This document shows, piece after piece, positions 5,752 through 59,317 of a stretch of 64,000 bases of DNA. The position numbers and the translations under genes are program-made. Under the pieces are notes generated by a model that saw nothing but the letters and a program-made list of their open reading frames with translations, searched no databases and had not been told where the DNA came from. Numbering within the stretch: the stretch's first letter is position 1; each line of letters opens with the position of its first letter. This DNA comes from Nostoc sp. (lineage in GTDB: Bacteria; Cyanobacteriota; Cyanobacteriia; Cyanobacteriales; Nostocaceae), in assembly GCF_035638895.1 (NCBI RefSeq), contig NZ_DASQZC010000559.1, positions 2,302-66,301 of the forward strand, in the 5' to 3' direction.

Positions 5752-6060
5752 CTATTGAATCAATTTAATTTTCTCTATTGCCTCTAAATATTTTTTTGTA
5801 TCGCCTTCTTGTAAATAAAGGTTAGCAGCTTGCTGCCAATCTTTAATTGCACCTTGATTATCTCCTAAGTCATAGCGAACCCAAGCTCGATTATTGTAGG
5901 TACTAGCTTTTTTTGCGTTTAACTGAATCGCTTTATTATAGTCTTGTTAAGCTAAAGAATATTTAGACTTGTGATTATCTAAGTTGCTTGTCATATAAAT
6001 CACACCGATTTCTTGATTGAATAGAATTTTTTCTGAGGGTAAAAATTTTTTGTAGCATTG
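5752..6060 (-). pseudogene. TPR-repeat protein remnant with an in-frame stop
   Basis: The minus-strand frame reads ...NQEIGVIYMTSNLDNHKSKYSLA(stop, TAA at 5947-5949)QDYNKAIQLNAKKASTYNNRAWVRYDLGDNQGAIKDWQQAANLYLQEGD... and ends at 5752. The pattern is TPR-like, but there is no intact ORF of 60 aa or more. The upstream limit is approximate. Confidence 0.5.
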
Positions 6061-6169
6061 TCGGTATTATACTAATGTGATGTACCAAATTTTTGATATT
6101 ATGCTGATATAAATACTGGCTACCCCTGACTTGACATTACATGCCGGATAATCTTGATGCTTTTGTGGG

Positions 6170-6224
6170 GTGGGCATCCTGCACGCCCATAACCAAGGGC
6201 GGGCGAGACGCCCACCCCACAAGA
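6170..6224. repeat. REP doublet (inverted pair of the same REP family)
   Basis: CTTTTGTGGGGTGGGCATCCTGCACGCCC ... GGGCGGGCGAGACGCCCACCCCACAAG. Both halves resemble the REPs flanking the RAYT and together form a long hairpin. Confidence 0.8.
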
Positions 6225-6283
6225 GATTATTGGATACTATTTGTGATTTGGAAGTCCCCAAAGCCGGAATAATTTTATAACTC

Positions 6284-7171
6284 TTGAACTTACAACAAAT
6301 AAATTTAAAATCATATTACACCCAAAATCACGGCGCAATATATCTAGGTGATAGCCTAGAACTAATTAAGTCTATTGAAAACAACAGTATTAATCTCATC
6401 CTCACCTCACCTCCATTTGCTCTGACACGAAAAAAAGAATACGGTAACGAAACTGCGGAAAAATATATTGAGTGGTTTCTACCTTTTGCCTATGAATTTA
6501 AAAGAGTACTGGCAGATAATGGCTCATTCGTACTAGATTTAGGTGGTGCTTACCTACCTGGTAATCCCGTGCGGAGTATCTACCAATATGAACTTTTAGT
6601 CAGATTATGCAAAGAAGCAGGTTTCTTTCTTGCTCAAGAATTTTACCACTATAATCCGGCTCGACTGCCAACCCCTGCTGAGTGGGTAACAATCAAGCGG
6701 ATTCGTGTGAAAGATTCTGTAAATACAGTTTGGTGGTTGTCTAAGACACCGAATCCTAAAGCAGATAACAGAAAAGTTTTAAAGCCCTATAGCCAAAGTA
6801 TGAAACAATTACTTAAAAATGGCTATAAGGCTAAAATACGTCCTAGTGGACATGATATTTCAAATAAATTCCAAAAAGATAACCAAGGTGCAATTCCACC
6901 AAATCTACTAGAAATTGCTAATACTGAATCGAATAGTGCTTATTTACGACGCTGTAAATCAGCAGAAATTAGACCCCATCCAGCACGTTTTCCTCAAGGG
7001 TTCGCCGAGTTCTTCATCAAATTCTTAACTGATGAAGGTGATATGGTTTTAGATCCATTTGCAGGTTCTAACACAAGCGGGTTTGTCGCTGAAACTCTGC
7101 AACGCCGATGGATATCTTTTGAAATTAACGAGGATTATGTAATGGGAAGCCGTTATCGTTTTACTCAATAA
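6284..7171 (+). CDS. DNA methyltransferase, beta-class N4-cytosine/N6-adenine type (SPPF motif)
   Basis: 295 aa. Motif IV (TSPPFAL) is near the N-terminus and the AdoMet motif I (VLDPFAGSNTSG) near the C-terminus, which is the beta-class order. The apparent start codon is TTG. No adjacent intact endonuclease ORF. Confidence 0.85.
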   Translation: MNLQQINLKSYYTQNHGAIYLGDSLELIKSIENNSINLILTSPPFALTRKKEYGNETAEKYIEWFLPFAYEFKRVLADNGSFVLDLGGAYLPGNPVRSIYQYELLVRLCKEAGFFLAQEFYHYNPARLPTPAEWVTIKRIRVKDSVNTVWWLSKTPNPKADNRKVLKPYSQSMKQLLKNGYKAKIRPSGHDISNKFQKDNQGAIPPNLLEIANTESNSAYLRRCKSAEIRPHPARFPQGFAEFFIKFLTDEGDMVLDPFAGSNTSGFVAETLQRRWISFEINEDYVMGSRYRFTQ

Positions 7172-7226
7172 AGATATTAAGTAAATATTCAGGACTAAGC
7201 AGTTAAAATCTATAACTCATAACTAC

Positions 7227-7439
7227 TTAAATTTCTCCATTCACTTGCATTTGATGAACTTGATCTGCTAACTCTTGACGACCTTGATCATCTAGTTTGT
7301 CAATTGCTAACATCCCCATGAGGATAACTTCTTTCAGGGTCAAACGTGTCGAATGTGCTTGTTTTTGCACAATCTCTTTAATAATGGGACTCACACCAAT
7401 CGCTGTACTAGCTCTAGCCACGGAATAAAAGGAAAACAC
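7227..7439 (-). CDS. hypothetical small protein
   Basis: 70-codon ORF with a GTG start, convergent with the methyltransferase. The composition looks coding, but I recognise no motif. Confidence 0.35.
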   Translation of the reverse strand: MFSFYSVARASTAIGVSPIIKEIVQKQAHSTRLTLKEVILMGMLAIDKLDDQGRQELADQVHQMQVNGEI

Positions 7440-8357
7440 TAATGATTAAGCCTAAATCTTAGCACCTCCCATGAAGTTATTTTGTCTAGTTAAAACTTAA
7501 TTTAAATGTGTTTCAACTCATACTTCAATAAGTAAACATTAATTTTAAATTAGGTATATACAGAATAACCTTCTAAGTGCAGGGCACTATCCTAGAACTG
7601 GACAATTTATATCAAAACCCCAATTATCGCACCAAAGGTAAGAGGCTACTTTTGCATGAAAATAAACTTAACTTTTATTATCTCAGAATAACGGGTATAG
7701 TGTCTAACAGTGCTATAAATAGCTCTAGAGTTGTTCCAAAGCTTTTTGATTGAGGGTGTACGGGCATAACTTCTAACTGTGCTGTAAATTACCTAAAATG
7801 GTCAGAAACTTCTTTAAGTGTCGTTCCTTGTCTGATCCTAGTTACGAATCTTTAATCTAACTAATTCCATATTTGAGAACTGACGCATTTGCAACGCTCA
7901 ATTTTATTTGAGAAATTAAAAAGCTATCCCCCTAGTTCTAGTAAAGTCTAATGCGATCGCCATAATTGACTGACATTTTAAACCTGAAATCAAATGGTTA
8001 TTTATTATGTTAGCAACGGCAAAAGCCAAAACCTCTGTCCTGAGATACTCAAAAATAACCTGCTAATTGCTGAGTTTGTACACACTTGCAATATTTGTGG
8101 CAACTGAGTTATAAAAAATAGTCGGTTTGTGAAAATAGGGTTTTCAGTACAACTATCCTTACAAATAAAATTTGTATACCACCGGGAAAACCGTAATTTA
8201 AAGAGATCATGAATTCTCAAATATAATCTCGTTAACAGGCTTTACAGAACTATACAGTTTAAATAAGAATAATAACTTAACCGAAGTAAAATTTTCCTGA
8301 ATACAGGCAACTAATGCTGTGAGATGGAAAAGCAGTGAGTAGAGGAGAGACAAAGCG

Positions 8358-9413
8358 ATGAGGGAACCTTATCTGTTGGCAGCAGGCTTGTTAACAGTAT
8401 TAGCAATACCAGCATTGGCTCTTCCACATTTGTCGATTATCTTGCCAGAAAATTCTAGATCCCTGTGGGATTTAAAACAGAGTTCGCAAGCAATAGTCAG
8501 TACAAAAATTATCAATAGCGTTGATATCTCTTTACCAGAACTCAGCGGCCAAGCGTTCCAACCCTTAAAAAGTTTGCAGCCAACAGCAGGTGAGAAAAAC
8601 ATTAAGAGCTTACCAGAAGTCAGTAGTCAGGAATTACCAGCTCCAACAGAGTCATCACTCAACCCCAGTCCCCAAGCAACTGGTCTCTCATTGACATCTG
8701 GGAATCAACTTTACTACCAAAGATTGGCGGCTCTGAAAACAGGTCAAATTTATACGCGCGTAGAAAGTGATAATTTGCAATCATTGTGGGAGTCGATCAA
8801 GAAACGTCAATTAACTTATGATGACTGGAAAAGTTTATTAGCTTCAGAAGCTAGAGCGATCGCTCTAGGTCAAGGTGCAAATCATCTAAGTATTTTAGTT
8901 GGTGATTCTTTGAGCATGTGGTTTCCGAGAGAAAAACTGCCTGCTGGAAAATTATGGCTGAATCAAGGCATATCTGGAGATACTTCTAGTGGTGTTTTAA
9001 AAAGATTGGGGGCATTTTCGGCAACGCGACCCGATGTGATTTACGTCATGGCTGGGATTAACGACTTACGAAAAGGTTCTAGTGATGGCATAATTTTGCG
9101 TAATTATCGCCGAATAATCCGTCGCTTACGGCAGACTCACCCAAAAGCTCAAATCATTGTCCAATCAATTTTGCCTACTCGCCTAGCAAAACTTTCTAAT
9201 AGCCGCATTCGTCACATCAATACACAACTAACTCAGATTGTCAAACAAGAAGGCGCTAATTATCTAAATATTTATAGCTGGTTTACGGATATGGAAGGCA
9301 ATTTGCGCCCAGAGTTGACCACAGATGGGTTGCACCTGTCTCAAGAGGGTTATGATGTGTGGCGATTGGCACTACAGCAGATAGAATACAAGCTAACTCA
9401 GCGTGAGAAATAA
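8358..9413 (+). CDS. SGNH/GDSL-family hydrolase with N-terminal signal and low-complexity region
   Basis: 351 aa with GDSLSMW (block I), GINDL (block III) and DGLHLS (block V). The N-terminus is hydrophobic. Confidence 0.8.
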   Translation: MREPYLLAAGLLTVLAIPALALPHLSIILPENSRSLWDLKQSSQAIVSTKIINSVDISLPELSGQAFQPLKSLQPTAGEKNIKSLPEVSSQELPAPTESSLNPSPQATGLSLTSGNQLYYQRLAALKTGQIYTRVESDNLQSLWESIKKRQLTYDDWKSLLASEARAIALGQGANHLSILVGDSLSMWFPREKLPAGKLWLNQGISGDTSSGVLKRLGAFSATRPDVIYVMAGINDLRKGSSDGIILRNYRRIIRRLRQTHPKAQIIVQSILPTRLAKLSNSRIRHINTQLTQIVKQEGANYLNIYSWFTDMEGNLRPELTTDGLHLSQEGYDVWRLALQQIEYKLTQREK

Positions 9414-12651: not shown

Positions 12652-12851
12652 CTAGACCGTTGAAATAGTTTAGCTTCGCATAAGAATCCGAAGAGGATTC
12701 TATGTATATTAACTGACAATTCTTTTTTATTTATAAACCATAACTATATGTTGTTATAAACCATAACTTATGATGTTAAATTTAGCATCTCTTCTAAAAA
12801 AATTATTATACGAACCACTGACGTAAATTTTTTTAAAGCAACGTAAGGCTT

Positions 12852-13718
12852 ATGGATACACAATTCGCCCAATTAATCGTTAATGGAATTGCGGTGGGGA
12901 GCATTATTGCTCTAGCAGCAGTCGGACTCACTCTTACCTACGGAATTTTACGGCTATCTAACTTTGCTCATGGTGATTTTCTCACTCTTGGAGCCTATCT
13001 GACTTGGCTGATAAACACTATTGGAGTCAATATTTGGCTGTCGATGATCCTGGCGGCGGTGGGAACAGTAGCAGCAATGCTGTTATCAGAAAAGTTACTG
13101 TGGTCAAAGATGCGCTCTATCCGTGCTACTTCTACTACGCTGATTATTATTTCTATCGGACTTGCCTTATTTCTTCGCAACGGTATTATTTTTATCTGGG
13201 GTGGCAAGAACCAAAATTATAATTTACCTGTTACGCCAGCTTTAGACATCGCGGGTTTAAAGGTGCCGCAAAATCAATTATTGGTATTGGGTTTGGCGGT
13301 GTTAGCAATTTTGGCACTGCATTATCTGCTGCAAAATACCAAAATTGGTAAAGCGATGCGAGCAGTTGCCGACGATCTGGACTTAGCCAGAGTTTCAGGT
13401 ATCAATGTTGACCGAGTAATTTTATGGACTTGGGTAATTGCTGGTAGTCTTACATCCTTGGGCGGCAGTATGTATGGGCTGATTACAGCCGTGCGCCCCA
13501 ATATGGGATGGTTTTTAATTTTACCATTATTTGCTTCAGTAATTCTTGGTGGGATTGGCAACCCTTACGGTGCGATCGCAGCAGCTTTTATCATTGGCAT
13601 CGTCCAAGAAATCAGCACTCCTTGGCTGGGTTCACAGTACAAACAAGGTGTAGCGCTGTTAATCATGATTTTGGTGCTGCTCATTCGTCCCAAAGGTTTA
13701 TTCAAAGGAACGATTTGA
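12852..13718 (+). CDS. branched-chain/neutral amino-acid ABC transporter permease (LivH/NatD-like)
   Basis: 288 aa, polytopic, with a LivH-type sequence (...NFAHGDF...GGIGNPYGA...). Confidence 0.88.
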   Translation: MDTQFAQLIVNGIAVGSIIALAAVGLTLTYGILRLSNFAHGDFLTLGAYLTWLINTIGVNIWLSMILAAVGTVAAMLLSEKLLWSKMRSIRATSTTLIIISIGLALFLRNGIIFIWGGKNQNYNLPVTPALDIAGLKVPQNQLLVLGLAVLAILALHYLLQNTKIGKAMRAVADDLDLARVSGINVDRVILWTWVIAGSLTSLGGSMYGLITAVRPNMGWFLILPLFASVILGGIGNPYGAIAAAFIIGIVQEISTPWLGSQYKQGVALLIMILVLLIRPKGLFKGTI

Positions 13719-13969: not shown

Positions 13970-14110
13970 TGGAAATTGGGGAGTGGAGAATAGGGAATGG
14001 GGAATGGGAACTGGGTATTGGGCAATTGGTTATTTCTTCCCCTGCTCCCCCTGTCTCCCCTGCTCCCTCATCCCCCGACTCCCGACTCCCCACTCCCCAC
14101 TCCCTCCTCT
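13970..14110. repeat. Opposed STRR arrays between lipA and psaX
   Basis: A G-rich heptamer array (GGGGAGT/GGGAATG...) at about 13970-14030 is followed by a C-rich array (CCCGACT, CCCCACT, CCCTGCT) at about 14038-14110. The latter overlaps the lipA 3' end. Confidence 0.85.
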
Positions 14111-15009
14111 CCAGCATGATAGGAACTGCGAACCAGAGGCCCAGAACGAACATGATTGAATCCCATTTCCCATGCTAATCTGCCTAGTTGATCAAATTCC
14201 TCTGGAGTCCAATATTTTTGGACTGGCAGATGTTCAAGAGTTGGACGCATATACTGCCCGATAGTCAAGCGATCGCACCCCACAGCCCTTAGATCAGCCA
14301 TTGTTTCAACGACTTCATCAAGTGTTTCTCCGTGTCCCAGCATCAAACCTGATTTGGTGGGAATTGTCGGATCGATTTCTTTGACCATAGCTAGTACCGA
14401 AAGGGAGCGATCATATTTGGCTCCCCGGCGCACTGGCCCAGTTAACCGTTTTACTGTCTCGATATTGTGATTGAAACAAGCTGGTTTGGCCTTTACAATC
14501 ATGGCTATTCGCTGGCGTTGACCTGATTCCCCAACACTAGCACCACCCCAAAAATCAGGGGTCAGCACTTCGATTTGAGTCTCTGGGTTCAATTGGCGGA
14601 TAGTCGCGATCGTTTCTACAAAGTGCCCTGCACCTTGATCGGGCAAGTCATCACGGGCTACAGAAGTCAGCACCACATAACGCAATCCCAAAAGCTGCAC
14701 CGCCTGTGCTACCTTTTGGGGTTCCTCTAAATCAAGAGGCATGGGTGCATGACCTTTATCTACTTGACAGAAAGCACAAGAGCGTGTGCAAGTAGGCCCC
14801 ATTAGTAAGAAAGTTGCAGTTTTTTGGGCATAACACTCCCCCCGGTTGGGACAGCGCCCTTCTTCGCAAATCGTGTGAATTTGGCGCTGCTTAATAATGC
14901 GTTGTACGGTAGAGATTTCACTGGCTTTGCCAATAGGACGACGTAACCAGCTAGGCATTGCCGTAATTTCAGACTTTAGTTCGGCTCGTTGTGACGAAAT
15001 CATAGACAT
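14068..15009 (-). CDS. lipA: lipoyl synthase
   Basis: 313 aa with the radical-SAM motif CTRSCAFC and the N-terminal cluster [12 protein letters not shown]. The C-terminal tail [14 protein letters not shown] is read from the STRR array. Confidence 0.95.
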
Positions 15010-15189
15010 CTAAGCAAGATACGGATATAAAGTAACGGTCTGTTAATTAACAATAGATAAGAATAGACGTGGGGATGCTCTTAATGAAGTCCCCATGTCT
15101 CAGTACCAGCATGTCTTTTATGCCCTAGAACAGAGCTAGAGCCTTAAATATCACCATGACACAAATTGAAAATAGCATAAGCAAAAGTT

Positions 15190-16017
15190 TTGCAAAACAC
15201 CTGTAGCAATGTCATTTATACCGAAATATACTATCCCCCAATTGCTAAAAATTTTGTATATAGTGGGGGAATTCTCAATGACAATCGGCAAAGCCGCTAT
15301 TTACACTTAAAGTTTCTGTTAGAGCAAACAGCCGTGGCAAGCAACAAGATTTTAGTTATCGATGACACTACAGTTGTCAGGGTAAAGGTACGAGAAATGT
15401 TGCCTCCGGGCAATTTTGAGGTACTGGAAGCAAAAGATGGTTTGGAAGGACTAAATTTCATTCTTCAGGAAAAACTCAGCCTGATTATGCTGGATTTCCT
15501 GTTGCCTAAAATGAGTGGCTGGGAGGTTTTCCAGAAAGTTCAAGCCGATCCTGAATTAAGGAAAATTCCTTTGGTAATCATGTCTGGTCGCAAGGAAGAG
15601 GTGACTGAAAAAATTACAGAACCCTTTGAATACTTTGAATTTCTGGGTAAGCCTTTTGATCAGAAGCAACTAATTAACGCAATTAAGTTAGCTATGACCA
15701 AGGCGAAACAGCCACGCCCAGAACTAGTGCCAGTAGGAGCAGTTACTGTCAAAAAAGGTACAGTCGCAACTTCTGGTGTAACTACTGCTACAGTAGCAGC
15801 CCCTAGTGCTGTAACTACTGCTACAGTAGCAGCTCCTAGTGCTGTAAATACTGCGATGCCTACGGCGGCAAGCAACGCAACCCCTACTGCCGGAGGAGCC
15901 TCCAACGCAGAAATTAGTGCATTGAATGAGAAAATTGTCAAAATGCAAGCTGAAATCGATGGCTTGAAGAAACAGCTTACTCAGGTTGTGACCTTTATTA
16001 AACAAAAAATTAAGTAG
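15190..16017 (+). CDS. CheY-like single-domain response regulator with repeat-containing and coiled-coil C-terminus
   Basis: Receiver domain (KILVIDDTTV...MLDFLLPKMSG...GKPF). A 33-nt tandem duplication encodes VTTATVAAPSA twice. The ORF-track start is TTG; the in-frame GTG at 15334 (VASNKILVIDD) is a more plausible start. Confidence 0.8.
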   Translation: MQNTCSNVIYTEIYYPPIAKNFVYSGGILNDNRQSRYLHLKFLLEQTAVASNKILVIDDTTVVRVKVREMLPPGNFEVLEAKDGLEGLNFILQEKLSLIMLDFLLPKMSGWEVFQKVQADPELRKIPLVIMSGRKEEVTEKITEPFEYFEFLGKPFDQKQLINAIKLAMTKAKQPRPELVPVGAVTVKKGTVATSGVTTATVAAPSAVTTATVAAPSAVNTAMPTAASNATPTAGGASNAEISALNEKIVKMQAEIDGLKKQLTQVVTFIKQKIK

Positions 16018-16280
16018 CATTTGTACTCATTATTATTATCGCAGCTAAAAATACCCCGTTTATGATAACGGGTGTCCCATTAAAAGCGGGTAAAAATAGT
16101 TAGTTCAAAAATACTTATGTTGCGAAATCATCTTTGAAAACAAAATTCAAAAGCAGGAAAACATAACTAGCAATTATCTGCACTTCTATAAATTTTGAAT
16201 TTTGAATTCCCCGAACGCGAACAGCGTCTTCGCAAAAGAAGAGGTTGACAGTCTAGAAAAGCAGCCCAATACCCACAAAA

Positions 16281-16328
16281 CCTGCCGTAGTTTGCTCTTA
16301 ATCTAAGGAGAACGGCAGGCTTTTTTTT
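16281..16328 (+). terminator. Orphan intrinsic terminator in the 0.87-kb intergenic region
   Basis: CCTGCCGT (16281-16288) pairs with ACGGCAGG (16312-16319) and is followed by C plus T8. No annotated ORF ends near it. Confidence 0.7.
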
Positions 16329-16413
16329 ATTTGTAAGACTTACACCCTGTAAAAATGCATCGTGATGTGAATTAACGATTTTGAGGTTGTTTCAGGCTTT
16401 TCTAAATTATCCT

Positions 16414-16438
16414 GCGATGCCTACGGCGGTAAACTACG
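16414..16438. repeat. Dispersed about-28-bp repeat, copy 2
   Basis: GCGATGCCTACGGCGGTAAACTACG. Confidence 0.7.
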
Positions 16439-16894
16439 TAAATAAACCATGCTGTATGTAGGGTGTGTAGCTGATTATTTTTATAAAAAACATACTACTT
16501 GTATGAAACAACAAGAGTATTAATAACTCACTTGATAACAATCGCCTTCATTAAAAATATTGTTCAATAGCAAAATTGTTTTGAGTTGACACTACTTTTT
16601 TCAAAAGACAAGAGTAATAATAACTAATTTAAAGCCACTCGCCTTCATTAAACAGGATGTTCATCTGTAGTCAAAATGAAGATTGGCGCTTCATATTCAT
16701 ACTGTAGCGATCGCCCCCGCAGTCGTATAGAACAATTTAATGTGAGAATGTTGCTGTTGTCAGATTTTTTGGGAACTATAGGATTATTAGGCTAAAAATT
16801 TGTCAGTCAGTCCGCCAATAAAACAAAGGTGACTTAGCTGCGATCGCAGAGCCAATAGTGAATAAATAACAAGGAGTTAAATTCAGTTAAATAC

Positions 16895-18214
16895 ATGAAT
16901 TACAAGACAGATATAAAAACCCTTGATTTATCAGAAGATAGTTTAATTTTAGTGGTAGATGATACTACTACAAACTTAGAAATTGTCTTTAACATATTAA
17001 CTAATGTAGGTTTTAACGTTACTACAGAAAATAATGGAGAAAATGCAATCAAGCAAGTTGAATATAACCCCCCTGATTTAATTTTATTAGATGTAGTGAT
17101 GCCGGGTATAGATGGGTTTGAAACCTGCAAAAGACTGAAACAAAACTCAGCTACTTGTGATATTCCGGTAATTTTTATGACGGCGGATTCTGATACTGAC
17201 AGTAAAGTAAAAGGTCTAAATATAGGCGCAGTTGATTACATTACCAAGCCTTTTCATGAAGAAGAATTATTAGCTAGAATTAAAACCCATCTTCAATTAC
17301 GAAATCTCACAAAAAATTTAGAAAAACGAGTTACAGAAAGGACAGCAGCGTTGTCTAGGGCATTAAAAGACTTACAAGAGTCTCAACTTCAGCTTGTACA
17401 GACAGAAAAAATGTCTGCCCTTGGTGAATTAGTAGCAGGAGTTGCTCATGAAATTAATAATCCTGTTGGTTTTATTCATGGCAATCTCCAACATGCTTCA
17501 GCATATTTTCAAGACATGATTAATATCATTAACCTCTATCAGCAGCATTATCCTAATCCGGTTCCAGAAATTAAAGAGGAAATTGCAGCAATAGATTTGA
17601 AGTATATGCTTGCCGATCTACCTAATTTAATATCCTCAATGAAAGAGGGTGTTCAGCGCATTCGCGACATTAGTATCAGTCTGAGAAACTTTTCTCGAGC
17701 AGATAGCGATCGCAAAGTTTCTTGCAACATTCATGATGGCATTGACAGCACAATCATGATTCTCAAACATCGCTTAAAAGCATCTGAGGATCATCCCGAT
17801 ATTCAAGTAATTAGAGATTACGATAATTTGCCAGAAATAGAATGCTTTATCGGACAACTAAATCAGGTATTTATGAACTTATTAGCTAATGCTATTGATG
17901 CTTTAGAGGAGTCTAATGTAGGGCGCACCTATATTGAGATTGAAGCAAATCCCAATCAAGTATTGATTCAGACTAGCCTCACTGTAAACAAAAAACATAT
18001 TTTGATTCGGATTAAAGATAATGGCGTGGGAATGTCACCTGATGTCCAGCAAAAAATCTTTGATCATTTATTCACCACTAAACCTGTGGGTCAAGGCACA
18101 GGATTAGGATTATCAATTGCTCGTCAAATTGTTGTCGAGAAACATGGAGGAACTCTGGAAGTAAATTCAGCACCAGGACAAGGTTCAGAGTTCATCATTA
18201 AGCTTCCTATTTGA
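16895..18214 (+). CDS. response-regulator receiver / histidine kinase hybrid
   Basis: 439 aa with an N-terminal receiver (LVVDDTTTNL...LDVVMPGIDG...TKPF), H-box GVAHEINNP and ATP-lid GTGLGLS. The codon usage is visibly A+T-rich. Confidence 0.9.
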   Translation: MNYKTDIKTLDLSEDSLILVVDDTTTNLEIVFNILTNVGFNVTTENNGENAIKQVEYNPPDLILLDVVMPGIDGFETCKRLKQNSATCDIPVIFMTADSDTDSKVKGLNIGAVDYITKPFHEEELLARIKTHLQLRNLTKNLEKRVTERTAALSRALKDLQESQLQLVQTEKMSALGELVAGVAHEINNPVGFIHGNLQHASAYFQDMINIINLYQQHYPNPVPEIKEEIAAIDLKYMLADLPNLISSMKEGVQRIRDISISLRNFSRADSDRKVSCNIHDGIDSTIMILKHRLKASEDHPDIQVIRDYDNLPEIECFIGQLNQVFMNLLANAIDALEESNVGRTYIEIEANPNQVLIQTSLTVNKKHILIRIKDNGVGMSPDVQQKIFDHLFTTKPVGQGTGLGLSIARQIVVEKHGGTLEVNSAPGQGSEFIIKLPI

Positions 18215-52572: not shown

Positions 52573-52604
52573 AATTCGTAATTCGTAATTCGTAATTCGT
52601 AATT
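52573..52604. repeat. (AATTCGT)n STRR array, unpaired copy
   Basis: AATTCGTAATTCGTAATTCGTAATTCGTAATT uses the same heptamer as the arrays at 20680/20817. Confidence 0.85.
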
Positions 52605-52629
52605 GACAGGACAGAGGAACTAATTGCTT

Positions 52630-52700
52630 AGGTAAGAAAAGAGATATATTGTATTATTTTTAGCTGATAGGTAAATCGCCAAGAAAGTAAAAGCGATCGC
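52630..52700 (+). repeat. 71-bp direct repeat, copy A
   Basis: AGGTAAGAAAAGAGATATATTGTATTATTTTTAGCTGATAGGTAAATCGCCAAGAAAGTAAAAGCGATCGC matches copy B at 60 of 71 positions by hand count. Confidence 0.85.
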
Positions 52701-52756
52701 CTTTATCTTTCTGTAAAATAAAGTTAAGACAGCATTAACAAATAGGGCTAATTACT

Positions 52757-53074
52757 ATGGCTGAATCAACTGCAAAACAACCTGCACGTCGAGGCAGAAT
52801 CTTTCCAGAACGTACTTTGCCACCAGAAGAACTTGCTAGACGCAAAGCTGAAGATGAGGTATTTTATCGCCGTTGTCGGCAAATTTTTGAGCGTGTACGT
52901 CCAGATTTGATTAAAGAACACTACGGTTGGTATATTGCTGTAGAGCCAAATAGTGGTGATTACTTGATTGATACAGATAGAATGCAAGCTCATAAAAAAG
53001 CGCTTGAAAAATACCCAAATACTGACCACTGTGTTTTTTGTTTTAATGAAACAGGAACCACTGGCACAATATGA
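52757..53074 (+). CDS. hypothetical protein, upstream partner of the aspartic-protease-like gene
   Basis: 105 aa. Its stop overlaps the next start by 4 nt (ATGA). Confidence 0.6.
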   Translation: MAESTAKQPARRGRIFPERTLPPEELARRKAEDEVFYRRCRQIFERVRPDLIKEHYGWYIAVEPNSGDYLIDTDRMQAHKKALEKYPNTDHCVFCFNETGTTGTI

Positions 53075-53433
53075 TTCAGGGTAAATTTGGGGAAAAGGGT
53101 CAACTATTTTTTGAAATTGATTTAATAACTGATGATGGATTAAATTTGCCTGTAGATGCCATGTTAGATACTGGTTTCACAGGTTTTTTGGCTATTAACA
53201 AACAAGATTTAGATAGTCTAGACTGGTTTTATATTGGTAAGGAAACTTTGCGAACTGCACAGGGTGAAACCTTGTTTAAAATATATTTAGGCAAGTTGAT
53301 ATTAAACGAACAAGAGTTTGAAATCCCTGTTTATGCAGGGGATGAAATTACAGAATTTTTGTTAGGTTCAGAATGGCTAAAAATTCTGCCGTTGGTGGTG
53401 AATTATCAGGCTGGTATATTAACTTTGGGATAA
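53071..53433 (+). CDS. retropepsin-like (clan AA) aspartic protease
   Basis: 120 aa with the catalytic-type motif LDTGFTGFLAI. Confidence 0.7.
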   Translation: MIQGKFGEKGQLFFEIDLITDDGLNLPVDAMLDTGFTGFLAINKQDLDSLDWFYIGKETLRTAQGETLFKIYLGKLILNEQEFEIPVYAGDEITEFLLGSEWLKILPLVVNYQAGILTLG

Positions 53434-53483
53434 CTGCGATCGCAGTTATTTTTAAATGGACAGCAGATACACAGATAAAGCAT

Positions 53484-53554
53484 AGGTAAAAAAATAAATT
53501 TATTTCACTATCTTTAGTTAACAAGTAGATTGCGGATAAATTAAAAGCGATGCC
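53484..53554 (+). repeat. 71-bp direct repeat, copy C (degenerate)
   Basis: AGGTAAAAAAATAAATTTATTTCACTATCTTTAGTTAACAAGTAGATTGCGGATAAATTAAAAGCGATGCC matches copy B at 54 of 71 positions without gaps. Its 3' end runs into the dispersed about-28-bp repeat at 53547-53575. Confidence 0.7.
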
Positions 53555-53645
53555 TACGGCTGGCTACGCCTACGCTATTAAATCAATCTAACTTTAAATA
53601 TTGTTAAAATAAGCTTAAACCTGTCAATAAACTAGAATATAAATC

Positions 53646-53924
53646 ATGAATATCCAAATTAAACCTGAACTAGAGCAAATTATCCAAGCGCAAATTGCTA
53701 CAGGTAGATATGCGAATCCTGAAGAAGTGATTAGTAAAGCATTGAAGTTGCTATCAGAGTGGGAAAAAGGTTATCAGCAGTGGGTAGAAGAAACACGCGA
53801 AAAAGTTGAAGTTGCTATTGAGCAACTGGATAGAGGGGAAGGTATTGATGGAGAAGTTGTAGTTGAACAATTGCGAGATAAACTGCGTAAAGCTAAAGAA
53901 TCTACGCGCTTCAGTTATTTTTAA
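53646..53924 (+). CDS. ParD-family antitoxin (ribbon-helix-helix), no cognate toxin gene
   Basis: 92 aa. The pattern PELEQIIQAQIATGRYANPEEVISKALKLL is typical of ParD/CC2985-type antitoxins. No ParE-like ORF follows. Confidence 0.7.
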   Translation: MNIQIKPELEQIIQAQIATGRYANPEEVISKALKLLSEWEKGYQQWVEETREKVEVAIEQLDRGEGIDGEVVVEQLRDKLRKAKESTRFSYF

Positions 53925-53952
53925 ACAAACCGTAGAGGCGCAGAGGGCGCAG

Positions 53953-54023
53953 AGGGAAGAAAAGAGATATATTTTACTATCTTTAATTAGTAGGTAAATC
54001 ACGGAGAAAGTAAAAGCGATCGC
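53953..54023 (+). repeat. 71-bp direct repeat, copy B (includes the 3' end of the nuclease gene)
   Basis: AGGGAAGAAAAGAGATATATTTTACTATCTTTAATTAGTAGGTAAATCACGGAGAAAGTAAAAGCGATCGC. On the minus strand it encodes ...DRFYFLRDLPTN followed by the stop. Confidence 0.85.
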
Positions 54024-55428
54024 TATTCCAATCACTACCTTTTATTCGTCCTAAATAGCCTGTTAATGGTGAAGAAAGTTCAATCAAAATTTCGTAAATT
54101 TCTTTATTTTTCAAAGACTCAGGTGGACTGCCATAAATGTATGCTATATGAAGGGCATCCACTCCAACATTTACATCACCTGTTTTTTCTAGATGATTTT
54201 TGACAAGCTGGATAATGTGCGATCGCAACCTTATTGATTGTTCAACTTTATCTATATAAGTATTAATTTTATCTTCAGCTAAACCAAAAGGAGCTTGTTG
54301 CAAATATTCTTTTAGTTCTAATAAGTTGATAGAATTTTTGTAGTGTGCTTGCAGTTCAACGAGTTTTTGCAGTGTTTCAGGGCTAATAACATTCATTTGA
54401 TTTTCGGTAGCTGTTCTTAAGGCGTAAAAATTTAGTTCTCCGGCGGCTACAATTAATTTAATAGAATTGTCATATTGAAATTTACCAAGATGGTTCATAC
54501 CTATTTTTAGTAACTGTGCAGGCGTACCATCAGTAACTTTCTCAGTTTTAGTTGCTTTGCACTCTCCTACTATTGGATAAGGTTGTTCAGTGTAAAAATC
54601 CATACCTCCTGCGCCACCAGTTGCATCTGGATTCAAACCTGAACCTGTAAAGCCTAATTTTAGTAACCCTCTACGTACTAATTTTTCAAATGTATGTCCG
54701 TCGCTAGAGTTCCCAACTTCAGCAATTTTATGAATCCAAGGTAAGTCTAAATCTAATGAATTGGTTAGTTTGTCACTACTCCAACCCAAAAATACTTTGA
54801 TATCGTCGTCTAATTGTTTCGCTGCTGGTTGGCTAACGGTTAGGGATGCGATCGCACTCTGCAATTCTTCCAATTCCAGGTGTAGCGGGGGTTCTAGCTT
54901 TTCTAATTGGTGTTTGCGTTGGGCGAAGGTGCGATCGTTTAATACTGGTAAATCAATAGATACCTTTAACGGATCAGGTAAACTTATAAACTGGCTTTGT
55001 GAATTCACAGGTATTTCAATTGGCTGAGACAATAAATAGACACGCAAATAAGCAAGAAAGATATGCTTCCTTTGCAGCAGAATCTCTTGTAATCCTTTTG
55101 TTGTCCAAATATTTAATTGTGACAAAGCTTTTAACGATTCTGAGTTATTTAAGATTTGGCACAGTTCACACTTACCCCAAGATTGAATGCAGACTGTTTC
55201 AGAACTTATTTGAGTAATAGCTTTCTGTGTAACCGTCAAGAAATTTGATTTGTAGTATTGTTCATTAGGTAACACATTGGTTGAGTTTTCAGACGGACAG
55301 AGAGCAAAGGAACGCCCTGGATGAATAAATGTCCGGGGTAGAGCTATGATTATTCGACCCTGTAGCAAACCTTCAACATCAGGAGAAGGTAGACATAAGG
55401 CAGTATTGAGCAAAATTAGATTACTCAT
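53983..55428 (-). CDS. DUF1802-like N-terminal domain fused to an Mrr-type PD-(D/E)xK nuclease core
   Basis: 481 aa. The C-terminal half has HTFEKLVRRGLLKLGF ... GGMDFY ... IVGECK (D277, E289, K291; nt 54556-54600). The N-terminal 165 aa resemble DUF1802 by recall. The start overlaps the stop of the ATPase gene. Confidence 0.7.
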   Translation of the reverse strand: MSNLILLNTALCLPSPDVEGLLQGRIIIALPRTFIHPGRSFALCPSENSTNVLPNEQYYKSNFLTVTQKAITQISSETVCIQSWGKCELCQILNNSESLKALSQLNIWTTKGLQEILLQRKHIFLAYLRVYLLSQPIEIPVNSQSQFISLPDPLKVSIDLPVLNDRTFAQRKHQLEKLEPPLHLELEELQSAIASLTVSQPAAKQLDDDIKVFLGWSSDKLTNSLDLDLPWIHKIAEVGNSSDGHTFEKLVRRGLLKLGFTGSGLNPDATGGAGGMDFYTEQPYPIVGECKATKTEKVTDGTPAQLLKIGMNHLGKFQYDNSIKLIVAAGELNFYALRTATENQMNVISPETLQKLVELQAHYKNSINLLELKEYLQQAPFGLAEDKINTYIDKVEQSIRLRSHIIQLVKNHLEKTGDVNVGVDALHIAYIYGSPPESLKNKEIYEILIELSSPLTGYLGRIKGSDWNSDRFYFLRDLPTN

Positions 55429-57332
55429 AAACCAAGTTTAACAATTAAATTATCAAGCATAGCGTCTAGCTCTTTCGTTACATTTAGATTTTGTATAGGC
55501 TGAGTTTCAACAACACATTCTTCGTTTATTAAACCACTAGGTATTTGACCAGATGGGTCACTTAAAATTTCACGTATTAAGTAGTTTTCAACTGCAATTT
55601 TGTGTTGAACTATAAACTGAGAAATTTCCTCTTCACTAACTTCATAATCTTTGCAAGCTTGCTGAACAAATAAAATTGCTAAAAGAGGCTTAATATCCTC
55701 AATACTAAGCTTTACAAATTCTCCTCCTAAATTTTTAGAAAGTAGTTCATCTAAATATTCTTTTCCTTTAGTATTAGGTTTCACATCTTTAGCACGAACC
55801 AAGCAGCCACGAGTCATATCAAATTTTTTATAATCTATTAATCTTCTCAAGGCAGCACTCACAAATTTATTGCTAGATTCTTGTACAACTGCTACTACTA
55901 TTTTGATAACTCTTTCATCTTCCTTACCAATAATTCTAAAGTTGAGGTAGCCTTTTTCTACATTTTTGACTATAACTTCTTCAACTTCATCGATTTTTAC
56001 TTTCTCTACAGTTTTGCCTTTCAGAGTTAATAAACAAAAACGTATAGCATCAGCTATGATATTACTGTCTTCAAAGTAATTTTCTATTGTATTATCAAGT
56101 GCTGCAAGTTCTTTATTAAAAGCTTTTTCAATTTTATGTAGTGGTTCTACTTGCACCAGTGGGACACCAGGCAAATTCCAATTATTTGCACACCACTGTA
56201 AAACCTTTCTAACTATTGGTTTTTCTTTACCAAGCGCTCGTAAATTGTTTTCATCGAAAGGATATAAAGGATGAGGTGGAGTTAAATTCTTTGTATCATA
56301 AAACTCCTTCAACCAGTGCAAAACAAGAGTTACTACATCATCACTATTAAGATGCCTTAAATCAAATTTCTTTTCACCAATTCTATCAATAACTGAATCT
56401 GCTTGTGGTACAACTTTAACTTGTTGCGTCCAAGTTTCATCGAACATAGCTAGAATTAATACTCCACGTTTAATTCTGCTATATATATCTTTTGCAAACA
56501 GAGCGATAACCTGTGCTCTTGTAAAACCCTGCTCATTACAATTGAGGCTTTCTAACTCATCAAAACAGATGACTATTGTCCTGTAATCACCAATTAAGTC
56601 TAAAATTTGGCATACTGTTTGGAATGCTTCAGCTTCTTTATCGTCTTGATTAGTATTTGGTAATCCCATAGAGTCTGCTTGTGACTGCGCTAAGTCTCTG
56701 CCAGCAAGCCAATTAGTTGCAAATGAAACTTTATCTAAAGAAAGCGTCCATAGGATAGCCTGAATCAAATAAGGATTTTCAATATTTGACTTAAGTTTCA
56801 GTACTTTAGCAGTCAAGGCATCAACTATTTTGGGATGTTGAGCTAAAACCCCAGGAAATCGCTTCATTAACTCTTGAGGAGTGTAGCTTGACTTATATAC
56901 CTCATTGACTAAAGTAGTTGCGATCTCTTGCCATTGCATTACACCTTGATTACCAGTTTGTTTTAGACTAAATGACAATGTGTTTAGAAATTTAGAATGT
57001 ATTTTGTTTAAGTCACCATAATCGACTTCGCTCATATAGACAAAAAAACTATCACCTTCATCCTGAATATGGTGACGAATCCGACTCATTAAGTGACTTT
57101 TACCCAGCCCTTTCTCAGCTTTAATAGTTATACCAATAACTGAACGTTTTCCTGTGCTGATTTGCTCTATTGCCTGATAAACAGCATCTGATGCATGAGC
57201 ATTTATGGAAGGAACATCAGGAAAAGTTTGGTTCCAGATATCATAGTTTCTAACTACTAATGATCTATCAAATGGGTTATGAATTGTAATAGCTTTGTTG
57301 ATGTCTGAGTATGAAGAGAAAGAATTAGTCAT
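55425..57332 (-). CDS. P-loop NTPase (STAND/ORC-like AAA-type), large uncharacterised C-terminal region
   Basis: 635 aa with Walker A AEKGLGKS (GLGKS = nt 57096-57110) and Walker B IVICFDE (nt 56556-56576). I recognise no motif in the last 370 aa. Confidence 0.75.
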   Translation of the reverse strand: MTNSFSSYSDINKAITIHNPFDRSLVVRNYDIWNQTFPDVPSINAHASDAVYQAIEQISTGKRSVIGITIKAEKGLGKSHLMSRIRHHIQDEGDSFFVYMSEVDYGDLNKIHSKFLNTLSFSLKQTGNQGVMQWQEIATTLVNEVYKSSYTPQELMKRFPGVLAQHPKIVDALTAKVLKLKSNIENPYLIQAILWTLSLDKVSFATNWLAGRDLAQSQADSMGLPNTNQDDKEAEAFQTVCQILDLIGDYRTIVICFDELESLNCNEQGFTRAQVIALFAKDIYSRIKRGVLILAMFDETWTQQVKVVPQADSVIDRIGEKKFDLRHLNSDDVVTLVLHWLKEFYDTKNLTPPHPLYPFDENNLRALGKEKPIVRKVLQWCANNWNLPGVPLVQVEPLHKIEKAFNKELAALDNTIENYFEDSNIIADAIRFCLLTLKGKTVEKVKIDEVEEVIVKNVEKGYLNFRIIGKEDERVIKIVVAVVQESSNKFVSAALRRLIDYKKFDMTRGCLVRAKDVKPNTKGKEYLDELLSKNLGGEFVKLSIEDIKPLLAILFVQQACKDYEVSEEEISQFIVQHKIAVENYLIREILSDPSGQIPSGLINEECVVETQPIQNLNVTKELDAMLDNLIVKLGL

Positions 57333-57395
57333 GATTGTGTATTTACTGAAAATAATGGCTAAGAAATCAAAGCGTAAAAAAATGAGTAACTTAGT

Positions 57396-58094
57396 TTAAA
57401 AATTGAGGCGTTTAGCATAACAGCGTAATCCACTGACTTTAGTAGTAATGGAATCTTCAATCTTGTCGGGGGCGCTATCTTCTATACTTCCACCCTGAAG
57501 TTGCAAAATGTCATTCTCCTGAACTTCTAGCAGCCATGTGTTAAAGTCTTCACGACTAACCCGATCGCCTATTTCTCTCCTGATACGATAAATTGGGACA
57601 AGATTATCTAGGTTGTAGTTTTGGTTAAGCTTGTCGTAGACTTCCAACGCCACCGACTTAAACTCGTCGTAAGATGCGATTCCTTTGGAAAGCTCCGCTA
57701 ACGCACTCTTCCCATTAACTGGAACATCTGCACCAGTTACCCCAACATCAATCTGACTTATCCACTTCACCAACGCATTCGCCACCCAAGCGCTAACAGT
57801 TGTCTCTTCAAACTTAAAATCGCCACTTCTCAAACCCTCACCCAACACCTCTAAACCCTTGGGAGATATCAGAGAATATCCCTTTTTGGAAATTGCGATC
57901 GCACCCTGATTCTGTAATTCTTCAAGTGAACCCTGATAATCTGCTACCTTCTGGGTTTTGGATACAATTCGCTTAGTGAGTTGGCCCTTCTTAACTTCCT
58001 GCTGCGTTCCTCCCAAATCCCACAAAGCTAAAAGGAGGCGAGTGCTAGTTAGGGCTGTATTTTTTGATGTCATATTGAATATACTTTTTGGCAA
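57396..58094 (-). CDS. winged-helix-like DNA-binding protein (hypothetical), first gene of the operon
   Basis: 232 aa with two wHTH-like segments (LLLALWDLGG...LEELQNQGAIAISKKGYSL and LVPIYRIRREIGDRVSREDFNTWLLEVQENDILQLQGG). The fold call comes from the sequence pattern only. Confidence 0.5.
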   Translation of the reverse strand: MPKSIFNMTSKNTALTSTRLLLALWDLGGTQQEVKKGQLTKRIVSKTQKVADYQGSLEELQNQGAIAISKKGYSLISPKGLEVLGEGLRSGDFKFEETTVSAWVANALVKWISQIDVGVTGADVPVNGKSALAELSKGIASYDEFKSVALEVYDKLNQNYNLDNLVPIYRIRREIGDRVSREDFNTWLLEVQENDILQLQGGSIEDSAPDKIEDSITTKVSGLRCYAKRLNF

Positions 58095-58410: not shown

Positions 58411-58893
58411 ATGAACATAGTATATAAAGAACGTAAAATAGTTTCGCGTCTATTAGCAGTTCTGCTTTCCGCATTGCTAACCGTACCCTTGTTGAGTAGC
58501 TGCGGAGGAGGTTCCAAAACTGCTACGCCACCACCGGTTGATGATACTGTTGTTGGTAGAACAGTGAGCGATCGCCAAACCGAAGCTAAGAAAGGAATGG
58601 GTACAGGGCAAAAAGTGGCACTTTTGGCAGGTGCGGCGGCACTTTACTACATGTACAACCAACATAAGAATGCTCCAAAAGAAGGAGCGCAAGGTAAGTA
58701 CTATCTTTCCAAGAACGGGCGTGTATACTACCGCGATGCTGAAAATCGCGCTCACTGGGTAACTCCACCATCAGAAGGAATTCGAGTACCAGAATCTCAA
58801 GCACAACAATATCGGCAATTCCAAGGCTATAACGGCAACACTTCAGGTCGCGATCTAACTGGCATAAGTTCATCCGCAGCTCCAGCCCTCTAG
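58411..58893 (+). CDS. lipoprotein (hypothetical)
   Basis: 160 aa with a signal peptide and lipobox LLSSCGG. Confidence 0.75.
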   Translation: MNIVYKERKIVSRLLAVLLSALLTVPLLSSCGGGSKTATPPPVDDTVVGRTVSDRQTEAKKGMGTGQKVALLAGAAALYYMYNQHKNAPKEGAQGKYYLSKNGRVYYRDAENRAHWVTPPSEGIRVPESQAQQYRQFQGYNGNTSGRDLTGISSSAAPAL

Positions 58894-58987: not shown

Positions 58988-59317
58988 ATGGTAGATGACT
59001 TTTTCCGAAAGGCGAAGGATCTCTTGTTGGGAGGGAACGGCGATCAATCTGAGGATGCTGAATACCGCGATCGCAATGTCCGCCCAGCGAGTGAAGACCC
59101 CTACGGCGACCCCGCAGATACATCCTCTTACGGCAACCTTACTCCAGCCAGCCAAGACCCATACGGCGACCCCGCAGACATAGCGTCTTACGGTAATGTT
59201 CGCCCAGCCAGTGAAGACCCCTACGGCGACCCCGCAGACCAAGGGGAATTTGGTAACGTCCGTCCAGCCAGCGAAGATCCCTACGGCGATCCCGCAGATG
59301 ACGATTACCGCCGTTAA
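58988..59317 (+). CDS. tandem-repeat acidic protein (4 x 20 aa NVRPASEDPYGDPAD... units)
   Basis: 109 aa with an AGGAG Shine-Dalgarno sequence upstream. Four in-frame 60-nt repeats span 59075-59314 and end at the stop codon. Confidence 0.7.
   Translation: MVDDFFRKAKDLLLGGNGDQSEDAEYRDRNVRPASEDPYGDPADTSSYGNLTPASQDPYGDPADIASYGNVRPASEDPYGDPADQGEFGNVRPASEDPYGDPADDDYRR

Follow-up and report, generated by a model that had tools for sequence, protein, structure and literature searches.

A co-conserved NTPase–nuclease gene trio of filamentous cyanobacteria as a putative chromosomally resident defence module

We analysed a 64,000-nucleotide stretch of DNA from Nostoc sp. (NCBI RefSeq assembly GCF_035638895.1, contig NZ_DASQZC010000559.1, positions 2,302 to 66,301; hereafter the window), and in particular a minus-strand operon of three genes, which encode, in order, a small putative winged-helix (wH) protein, a P-loop nucleoside triphosphatase (NTPase) and a nuclease with an N-terminal DUF1802 domain. 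We tentatively interpret this trio, at somewhat less than even confidence, as a putative chromosomally resident, NTPase-gated, restriction-type nuclease module that defends filamentous cyanobacteria against phage or foreign DNA. The catalytic and NTP-binding motifs of the proteins are intact, their modelled domains have recognisable folds, the genes are coupled in one operon and conserved together, and within Nostoc they stay at one chromosomal position, where very old classes of alleles reassort. From these observations we infer the target (modified or foreign DNA), a licensing step and an immune role.

Architecture of the operon and its proteins

A preliminary description of this DNA, made by reading the sequence, had reported three co-directional minus-strand open reading frames (ORFs), and these were reproduced at 57396-58094, 55425-57332 and 53983-55428. 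A gap of 63 nt separates the small gene from the NTPase gene, and the NTPase and nuclease genes share the sequence ATGA at 55425-55428. The impression that the operon is A+T-rich is borne out by the GC content at third codon positions (GC3), which is 0.225 for the NTPase gene and 0.274 for the nuclease gene, whereas pgi, mdh and the small gene lie at 0.40-0.43. Coordinates of all features are collected in Table 1.

The nuclease begins with a DUF1802 domain, as had been proposed: Pfam PF08819 matches residues 10-174 with E=9.9e-30 (104.1 bits where 25 are required, with all of profile positions 1-174 covered), and the domain is carried by all the listed homologues. It had been described as a domain of unknown function, and here the AlphaFold2 model (predicted local distance difference test score, pLDDT, 79.7) allows a revision, in that the fold is predicted to be ASCH/PUA-like. 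Foldseek against the PDB matched it to ZmASCH (probability 0.99, TM-score, TMt, 0.54-0.57), to the TRIP4 ASCH domain bound to dsDNA, to AF2351 and to TTHA0113 (TMt 0.62); overall the matches of this domain have probabilities of 0.97-0.99 and TMt of 0.5-0.6, with whole-chain E-values of 0.03-0.7. The conserved core of the domain consists of G24, W84, C87, E88, W108 and Y131, and the remainder varies. The middle part of the chain has a predicted restriction-endonuclease fold with a match to HindIII (probability 0.97), and MspJI appears among the fold matches. Towards the C-terminus there are winged-helix matches to Fur, BlaI, Cdt1 and the ORC winged helix, with DSSP elements H423-432, H441-451, E459-462 and E471-474. 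From these matches, the predicted architecture is ASCH-like domain, linker, PD-(D/E)xK core and winged helix.

The catalytic residues are well conserved. D277, E289 and K291, which had been picked out as the catalytic D..ExK residues, are each retained in at least 97% of 83 nuclease homologues from all allele classes, and the same is true of E248. The name Mrr-type nuclease was only partly upheld: the PD-(D/E)xK motif and the HindIII match support a nuclease of this fold, but the Pfam Mrr_cat match (E=0.02, 15.5 bits) is under its cut-off of 21. By conserved residues and modelled fold the protein is a PD-(D/E)xK enzyme, with assignment to the Mrr clade not secured.

For the NTPase, the Walker A (AEKGLGKS, K78) and Walker B (IVICFDE, D258/E259) motifs read in the 635-residue protein are real, with G75, G77, K78, F257, D258 and E259 each at least 97% conserved in 75 homologues. 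The remainder of the protein had been thought to contain no motif that could be named; the protein is now modelled (AlphaFold2, pLDDT 81.6) as an ORC/Cdc6-like fold followed by a C-terminal alpha/beta domain. The closest Foldseek match is archaeal Orc1/Cdc6 (E=1e-4, probability 1.0), and further matches at the level of the fold are RADAR RdrA, BREX BrxC and CED-4. Pfam reports KAP_NTPase (PF07693) at 28.9 bits against a cut-off of 20, covering only profile positions 2-163 of 293. In the model, Walker A is separated from Walker B by a long helical insert that is soluble (residues ~133-248). A scan for transmembrane helices in the NTPase found none (maximum Kyte-Doolittle score over 19-residue windows 1.25), and a membrane-anchored KAP protein is ruled out, there being no hydrophobic segment. 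The protein is thus best described, on its model, as an ORC/Cdc6-like, soluble NTPase that Pfam annotates as KAP.

The secondary structure of the C-terminal domain of the NTPase (residues 423-560) is predicted to be alpha-beta-beta-beta-alpha-beta, and its conserved residues are F465, L498, Y501, T507, R508, G509, C510, L511 and R513. MspJI is among the Foldseek matches of the NTPase model (probability 0.92), and this match probably maps to the C-terminal domain. A canonical D..ExK motif or catalytic triad is absent from residues 423-560, and the domain may be a restriction-endonuclease-like binding or sensor domain. The protein ends in a hypervariable tail.

The small protein had been given 232 residues, counted from a TTG codon (open frame 57396-58094, minus strand, in the ORF list of the window). 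A start at the ATG at 58073, giving 225 residues, is likelier, because most homologues and the database copy use it; the homologues begin at MTSKNT. The protein could be assigned to no known family, and its own family is tiny, with 253 clusters among 1.84 billion representatives. The C-terminal half is also found in proteins with ParB_N, PadR, SAP/HeH or MCM4_WHD modules, company that fits a putative tandem winged-helix DNA-binding adaptor or regulator. It is worth adding that in three relatives (P0460, P0382 and P0475) the C-terminal domain lies in long proteins with phage portal and inorganic pyrophosphatase, ferritin-like and GNAT domains, and because these partners are unrelated, the domain appears to be a mobile module.

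Allele classes at a fixed site

Synteny was counted in the 80 best nuclease loci from a scan of species-representative genomes. All are cyanobacterial, and they come from Nostocales, Coleofasciculaceae, Microcoleus, Oscillatoria, Lyngbya and Xenococcaceae. In 74 of the 80 the small gene is followed by the NTPase gene and then the nuclease gene on one strand, which answers in the affirmative the question of whether the trio is syntenic elsewhere; of the other six loci, four are truncated where the contig ends, one is a tandem array and one has decayed upstream genes. The junctions between NTPase and nuclease genes are mostly -4, +2 or +10 nt. The suggestion that the middle gene is sometimes swapped for unrelated genes was ruled out, the middle gene of Nostoc C057 being a 53%-identical homologue. 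Within Nostoc the site is constant (fpg – mdh – o109 – o160 – trio – small cassettes – pgi), and the interval between pgi and mdh noted in the window is the same across the genus. Two contigs of metagenome-assembled genomes (MAGs) labelled Acetobacteraceae (L018) and Chroococcales (L078) carry Nostoc-type loci; the PGI of L078 is 97% identical to that of the window, and L018 shares the neighbours fpg, o160, o109 and o105. Both are most likely mis-binned Nostoc contigs.

In Nostoc genomes whose PGI is 96-98% identical to that of the window, the NTPase is 40-93% and the nuclease 54-80% identical, and the two identities vary independently of each other. As judged by column identity, the variability spans the whole length of the NTPase. 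In the nuclease it is unevenly distributed, with column identities of 0.3-0.6 in the ASCH domain, ~0.9 in linker residues 161-220 and 0.55-0.72 downstream of the linker; the catalytic core is intermediate and the C-terminal tail conserved.

When 28 Nostoc loci were clustered and compared by Mantel tests, the small protein was found to vary together with the NTPase and the ASCH domain (rho 0.42-0.87 among the three, p<=5e-4), and catalytic-core distances were uncoupled from NTPase distances (rho -0.13). The NTPase and the ASCH domain together form a specificity block that reassorts against independent classes of catalytic core, and linker residues 161-225 are the likely recombination breakpoint between this block and the catalytic block. 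The classes are common to several genera: one NTPase class is present in Nostoc, Calothrix and a Coleofasciculaceae MAG, and a Microcoleus NTPase (65% identical) is nearer to that of the window than most Nostoc alleles are.

Nei-Gojobori estimates of synonymous (dS) and nonsynonymous (dN) divergence were used to gauge the depth of the classes. Within one class the dS of NTPase alleles is 0.14-0.17, like that of the flanks (PGI dS 0.13-0.29). Between classes, in equally close genomes, dS is 1.4-2.5 and dN 0.34-0.45, and dN/dS stays at 0.18-0.26. The catalytic core has two or three classes, with a within-class dS of ~0.06-0.23; dS rises to 2.2-2.8, two pairs being saturated, when the window's class is compared with the class that is otherwise commonest, and a third class is intermediate at ~1.0-1.2. 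The NTPase with the ASCH domain, and likewise the catalytic core, are ancient allele classes under purifying selection that recombine at a fixed locus, and not fast-evolving genes.

Turnover and natural loss

The 3' end of the operon had been noted to be duplicated in nearby repeats. This is correct: a 114-nt repeat is present in three copies in the window, and all three are 3' ends of nuclease genes. Read on the minus strand, the copy that follows pgi gives GDRFYFLGDLPIS-stop where the nuclease gene itself has SDRFYFLRDLPTN-stop, and ~55 nt downstream are also shared. The alternative that these are generic dispersed repeats is ruled out, since the extra copies are relic nuclease 3' ends. The repeats bracket the cassettes between the nuclease gene and pgi, namely a ParD-like ORF (53646-53924) and the o105/o120 pair (52757-53433), which suggests that cassettes have been inserted, or nuclease alleles replaced, through recombination at the 114-nt repeat sequence.

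Other loci carry additional or partial copies. Stray nuclease fragments are found in L039, L040 and L065, and L062 has a second nuclease gene in tandem (6001-9015). Oscillatoria sp. PCC 10802 (L061, 900-12063) has three successive divergent NTPase-nuclease units, and the idea that this is a rearranged trio was rejected, as it is a tandem array; two divergent units stand in tandem in O. princeps (L069, 1-7476). A Rivularia NTPase-nuclease pair is only 27%/35% identical and the pairing is still kept; it lies beside a canonical trio (L077, 469-7455). L061 and L077 each yielded just one small gene for their several units. From the relic 3' ends and the tandem arrays we therefore conclude that there is ongoing turnover.

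A sample of loci anchored on pgi gives an unbiased view of presence and absence. The trio is at the syntenic site in five of them (L086, L088, L090, L097 and L105) and is cleanly absent from L089. In L092 there is no trio, and the last 28 nuclease codons and the stop codon remain (12838-12925, minus strand, reading TGYLGRVKGSYWRSESDRFYYLRDLPVN-stop); this remnant is a deletion footprint. In Nostoc punctiforme PCC 73102 (L166, CP001037.1, 9584-11699) the nuclease is cut to 399 residues with a DDE transposase gene directly after it, and because of this truncation by a transposase insertion the copy is probably naturally inactivated. Given its absence from L089, its deletion in L092 and its truncation by an insertion sequence (IS) in N. 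punctiforme, the trio is dispensable and not essential. In L089, a close relative without the trio, a 1060-residue NACHT and FGE-sulfatase STAND protein is encoded between o109 and mdh (13976-17158, minus strand), and because this protein occupies the interval where the trio is missing, the mdh-pgi interval behaves like a variable hotspot for conflict genes.

Comparison with known systems

The trio had been thought to lie outside the named defence systems, and database searches agree. PADLOC-DB 2.0.0 (2023; including Septu, Gabija, Lamassu, PARIS, AVAST, BREX, DISARM, Shedu, RADAR, Tmn and others) has no match to the small protein or the nuclease, and its sole match to the NTPase is spurious (E=0.022); in NCBIfam and PHROGs profile scans no model fits the trio. 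Searches of PDB sequences with the trio proteins, by single sequence and by profile, returned nothing useful. A literature search on DUF1802, on KAP plus Mrr and on hypervariable defence loci of Nostoc found no account of the trio and no function for DUF1802. In Pfam and the ORF list there is no methyltransferase domain in the three-gene operon, and Pfam, PADLOC and NCBIfam gave no AAA_5/McrB or McrC profile match for the trio proteins.

The closest analogies are with type IV restriction. Fusions of PUA-superfamily domains to nucleases, and PD-(D/E)XK-wH(-NTPase) enzymes, are modification-dependent restriction enzymes (PMC6765204, PMC11037411), and the PUA-superfamily-nuclease groups include MspJI, VcaM4I and ScoA3IV (PMC6765204, PMC7897488). 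Like these, the trio nuclease combines a PUA-superfamily reader and a nuclease in one polypeptide and has no cognate methyltransferase. It differs from them in that its reader is ASCH-like (DUF1802) and not SRA or EVE, in that the reader is N-terminal to the PD-(D/E)xK core with the winged helix after the core, and in its obligate partnership with a P-loop NTPase encoded by another gene and with a small putative winged-helix protein. Those enzymes depend on modified DNA, and the architecture of the trio hints that its nuclease may do so too. ASCH has been proposed as a reader of modified DNA bases (PMC11037411, PMC7641849). The order of PD-(D/E)xK core followed by winged helix is that of DpnI-like PD-(D/E)XK-wH enzymes and their NTPase-fused relatives (PMC11037411), and DpnI-like enzymes and McrBC belong, as proposed for the trio, to a type IV setting in which nucleases and NTPases work together (PMC11037411). 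However, the trio NTPase is a separate gene, the nuclease has an additional ASCH domain, and the NTPase is ORC/Cdc6- or KAP-like and not an McrB-type AAA+ GTPase.

The NTPase also invites comparison with defence ATPases. KAP NTPases (EF_KAP and relatives) can give Walker-B-dependent phage defence (PMC13552941), and multicellular bacteria are rich in conflict systems built around an NTPase (PMC7159879). The trio shares with the KAP defence proteins (F-plasmid PifA; EF_KAP, PMC13552941) a KAP_NTPase match above threshold and an NTPase coupled to an otherwise unrelated effector. It differs in that the match ends after the first ~160 of 293 profile positions, and in that the effector is a separate nuclease, theirs being a fused C-terminal region. 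The soluble trio NTPase also differs from KAP defence proteins in membrane topology, transmembrane helices in or flanking the NTPase domain being typical of many prokaryotic KAPs. With BrxC, RdrA and the Avs/NACHT ATPases there is likeness at the level of the fold, the same logic of an NTPase plus an effector and a shared enrichment in multicellular bacteria (PMC7159879), but the trio has no PADLOC profile match, other partner genes and no arrays of repeat sensors.

Homologues of the NTPase module are also found on conjugative plasmids of Nostoc, Calothrix and Tolypothrix, where the module is fused to an N-terminal RNase T-type exonuclease. The plasmid module is 24% identical to the trio NTPase over residues 19-402, and both have the NPF, Walker A, WLA..GLPN and Walker B motifs. 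The fusions differ from the trio in having a DEDD exonuclease in cis, in being plasmid-borne beside GmrSD-like genes, and in having no ASCH-nuclease or small putative winged-helix partner. The same NTPase module is thus predicted to pair with more than one kind of nuclease, either in cis or in trans. Weak nSTAND matches were obtained for the plasmid paralogue. An example of the fusion is WP_179076702.1 (801 residues) on plasmid p057_H of Nostoc sp. C057 (L085, 4527-10722), downstream of whose gene come those for a DUF262 protein, an ISL3 transposase and a DUF1524 protein. DUF262 and DUF1524 are the two halves of GmrSD-type type IV enzymes, and the arrangement resembles a type IV restriction gene of the GmrSD kind that an insertion sequence has interrupted.

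Other features of the region

Table 1. Features of the trio locus in the window (minus strand indicated where given)
Feature	Coordinates	Strand	Residues	Remarks
Small protein gene	57396..58073	-	225 aa from ATG at 58073	Open frame to TTG at 58094 = 232 aa
P-loop NTPase gene	55425..57332	-	635 aa	
Walker A, AEKGLGKS	57096..57119	-	72-79 (K78)	Read from sequence
Walker B, VICFDE	56556..56573	-	254-259 (D258/E259)	Read from sequence
NTPase C-terminal alpha-beta-beta-beta-alpha-beta domain	55653..56066	-	423-560	Secondary structure of AlphaFold2 model
Nuclease gene	53983..55428	-	481 aa	From N- to C-terminus: DUF1802 (ASCH-like), conserved linker, catalytic core, winged helix
DUF1802 domain, ASCH/PUA-like	54904..55428	-	1-175	Pfam, Foldseek
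Conserved helical linker	54754..54948	-	161-225	Column identity
PD-(D/E)xK catalytic core	54229..54753	-	226-400	
Catalytic codon E248	54685-54687	-	248	
Catalytic codon D277	54598-54600	-	277	
Catalytic codon E289	54562-54564	-	289	
Catalytic codon K291	54556-54558	-	291	
C-terminal helical region and winged helix	53986..54228	-	401-481	Ends in conserved ELSSPLTGYLGR...DRFYFLRDL motif
114-nt repeat copy 1	52589..52702			After pgi; minus strand reads GDRFYFLGDLPIS-stop, relic nuclease 3' end
114-nt repeat copy 2	53443..53556			After o120 ORF; degenerate relic of nuclease 3' end
114-nt repeat copy 3	53912..54025			Functional nuclease 3' end and downstream sequence

The o105/o120 pair consists of overlapping genes at 52757-53074 and 53071-53433 on the plus strand, with GC3 of 0.22-0.27, as low as that of the trio. 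The second gene has a DTGFTG motif and a weak retropepsin-like Pfam match (E=0.0096). Besides Nostoc, loci of Calothrix, Rivularia and Nodularia (L039, L051, L053, L075 and L077) have the pair near the trio.

Upstream of the trio, a 109-residue ORF (58988-59317, plus strand) contains four tandem copies of the peptide (N)(V/L)(R/T)PAS(E/Q)DPYGDPAD, and it is kept beside a 160-residue ORF (58411-58893) in most Nostoc loci; Pfam gave no match to either ORF. Short repeats at 53423-53444, 54218-54235, 54844-54864 and 57882-57911 are centred on GCGATCGC, the cyanobacterial HIP1 palindrome, and are probably not specific to the trio locus. A promoter and terminator scan gave counts not above those for shuffled sequence, and Rfam matched no family in the whole window.

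Discussion

The proposed mechanism is as follows. The nuclease would read nucleic acid by two modules, the N-terminal ASCH/PUA-like domain and the C-terminal winged helix, and would cut at a canonical E..D..ExK centre. PUA-like and winged-helix folds serve to recognise modified bases in known type IV enzymes. The ORC/Cdc6-like NTPase would bind or oligomerise on the target or trigger, and its binding or hydrolysis of NTP would license the nuclease. The small putative winged-helix protein would tether the complex to DNA or autoregulate the operon.

The preliminary description called the operon a candidate uncharacterised defence system. Much of this stands, as no named model fits, the genes are syntenic, the D..ExK residues are conserved, there are distinct allele classes, the trio is dispensable and a NACHT protein can occupy the same interval. 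What does not stand is the accompanying picture of an accessory element of sporadic distribution, and several observations weigh against the defence interpretation itself. Relatives of the nuclease occur in at least 431 species-representative genomes, which is unusually widespread for a defence system. The trio is positionally stable, at one fixed chromosomal site in Nostoc, and its neighbours in Coleofasciculus and Microcoleus are housekeeping genes and not defence islands. No nuclease relatives were found by tblastn against 72,556 PLSDB plasmids and 50,697 GenBank phage records, nor in a scan of IMG/VR viral contigs. A sporadic, island-associated and mobile distribution is the general expectation for defence systems, and the distribution of the trio is of another kind; the fixed synteny rules out a sporadic accessory island, and together with the wide occurrence and the results for plasmids, phages and viral contigs it leaves an accessory origin unsupported. 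On the structural side, the active-site region of the nuclease model (residues 271-304) is of low confidence, and every fold match of the nuclease has a whole-chain E-value of at least 7e-3, as is to be expected because the query has several domains. The role of ASCH as a reader of DNA modification is unproven (PMC11037411). Finally, the co-segregation of NTPase and ASCH classes may reflect interaction, or physical linkage alone.

These features of distribution and position are what would be expected of a housekeeping complex for DNA transactions in filamentous cyanobacteria (repair, replication restart or chromosome handling), composed of an ORC/Cdc6-like loader, a DNA-binding protein and a structure-specific nuclease; the fold of the NTPase and the purifying selection (dN/dS ~0.2) fit it too. 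We nevertheless consider it improbable. Such a complex would not be expected to have deeply divergent allele classes despite ~97%-identical flanks, modules that reassort, tandem arrays of divergent copies or atypical GC3, and the clean absence, the deletion relic and the IS truncation in a viable laboratory strain are all contrary to it. It is because very old allele classes recombine at a fixed site that we favour an immune, restriction-type function over a housekeeping one. The same ancient classes, shared across genera and reassorting at one locus, are typical of negative frequency-dependent selection, and could also belong to a system of strain discrimination (allorecognition-like) or addiction, in which balanced classes mark self and restrict conspecific DNA of another class arriving by transformation or conjugation, and not phages as such. 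A ParD-like and other small cassettes adjoin the operon, as this would suggest. However, the operon has no modification enzyme or immunity gene with which to mark self, addiction is disfavoured because loss of the module is tolerated, and the proposal is in our view improbable as well.

A further explanation is abortive infection of the NLR/Avs type. Here the C-terminal alpha/beta domain and tail of the NTPase would sense a phage protein, and the NTPase would oligomerise and activate indiscriminate degradation of DNA, with the ASCH domain as a docking adaptor. This would account for an NTPase that varies along its entire length and ends in a hypervariable tail, for its likeness in fold to STAND and ORC-like defence ATPases (CED-4, RdrA, BrxC), for the co-segregation of NTPase and ASCH classes, for an ASCH domain that keeps its core residues and varies elsewhere, and for the weak nSTAND matches of the plasmid paralogue. 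We think it unlikely all the same, as the NTPase has no repeat-type sensor domain and matches no PADLOC Avs or NLR model, two folds that read nucleic acid (ASCH and winged helix) would be superfluous in a simple effector, and linkage explains the co-segregation equally well.

The most far-reaching interpretation of the locus is one that we regard as speculative and doubtful. The locus might be a balanced-polymorphism locus for immune specificity in multicellular cyanobacteria, with a population logic like that of fungal het/NLR loci or the vertebrate major histocompatibility complex (MHC). The ASCH domain and the NTPase would be a co-evolving lock-and-key pair, whose ancient trans-generic classes set recognition and are shuffled through the linker against interchangeable nuclease cores. 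If true, this would be an undescribed way for a single resident chromosomal locus, and not a mobile island, to generate and maintain diversity of defence.

Significance

Each module of the trio is known, as is the general logic of an NTPase plus a nuclease. What is unusual is that an ASCH–PD-(D/E)xK–wH nuclease is combined with a soluble ORC/Cdc6-like 'KAP' NTPase, encoded separately, and with a small putative wH protein. Unusual too are the near-constant position of this combination at a core site throughout a whole group of multicellular bacteria and the MHC/het-like pattern of ancient, modularly reassorting allele classes. The known NTPase-coupled nucleases thereby gain a member in which the nuclease has this predicted architecture and the NTPase is encoded separately, and DUF1802 gains a predicted fold (ASCH/PUA-like) and a context.

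Filamentous cyanobacteria such as Nostoc, Microcoleus and Calothrix are ecologically important, symbiotic nitrogen fixers whose phage defence is poorly charted, and the trio is present in hundreds of their species with no functional annotation. The strongest point is evolutionary: a dispensable, fixed locus with ancient classes that reassort by module is a tractable natural experiment on how specificity diversifies.

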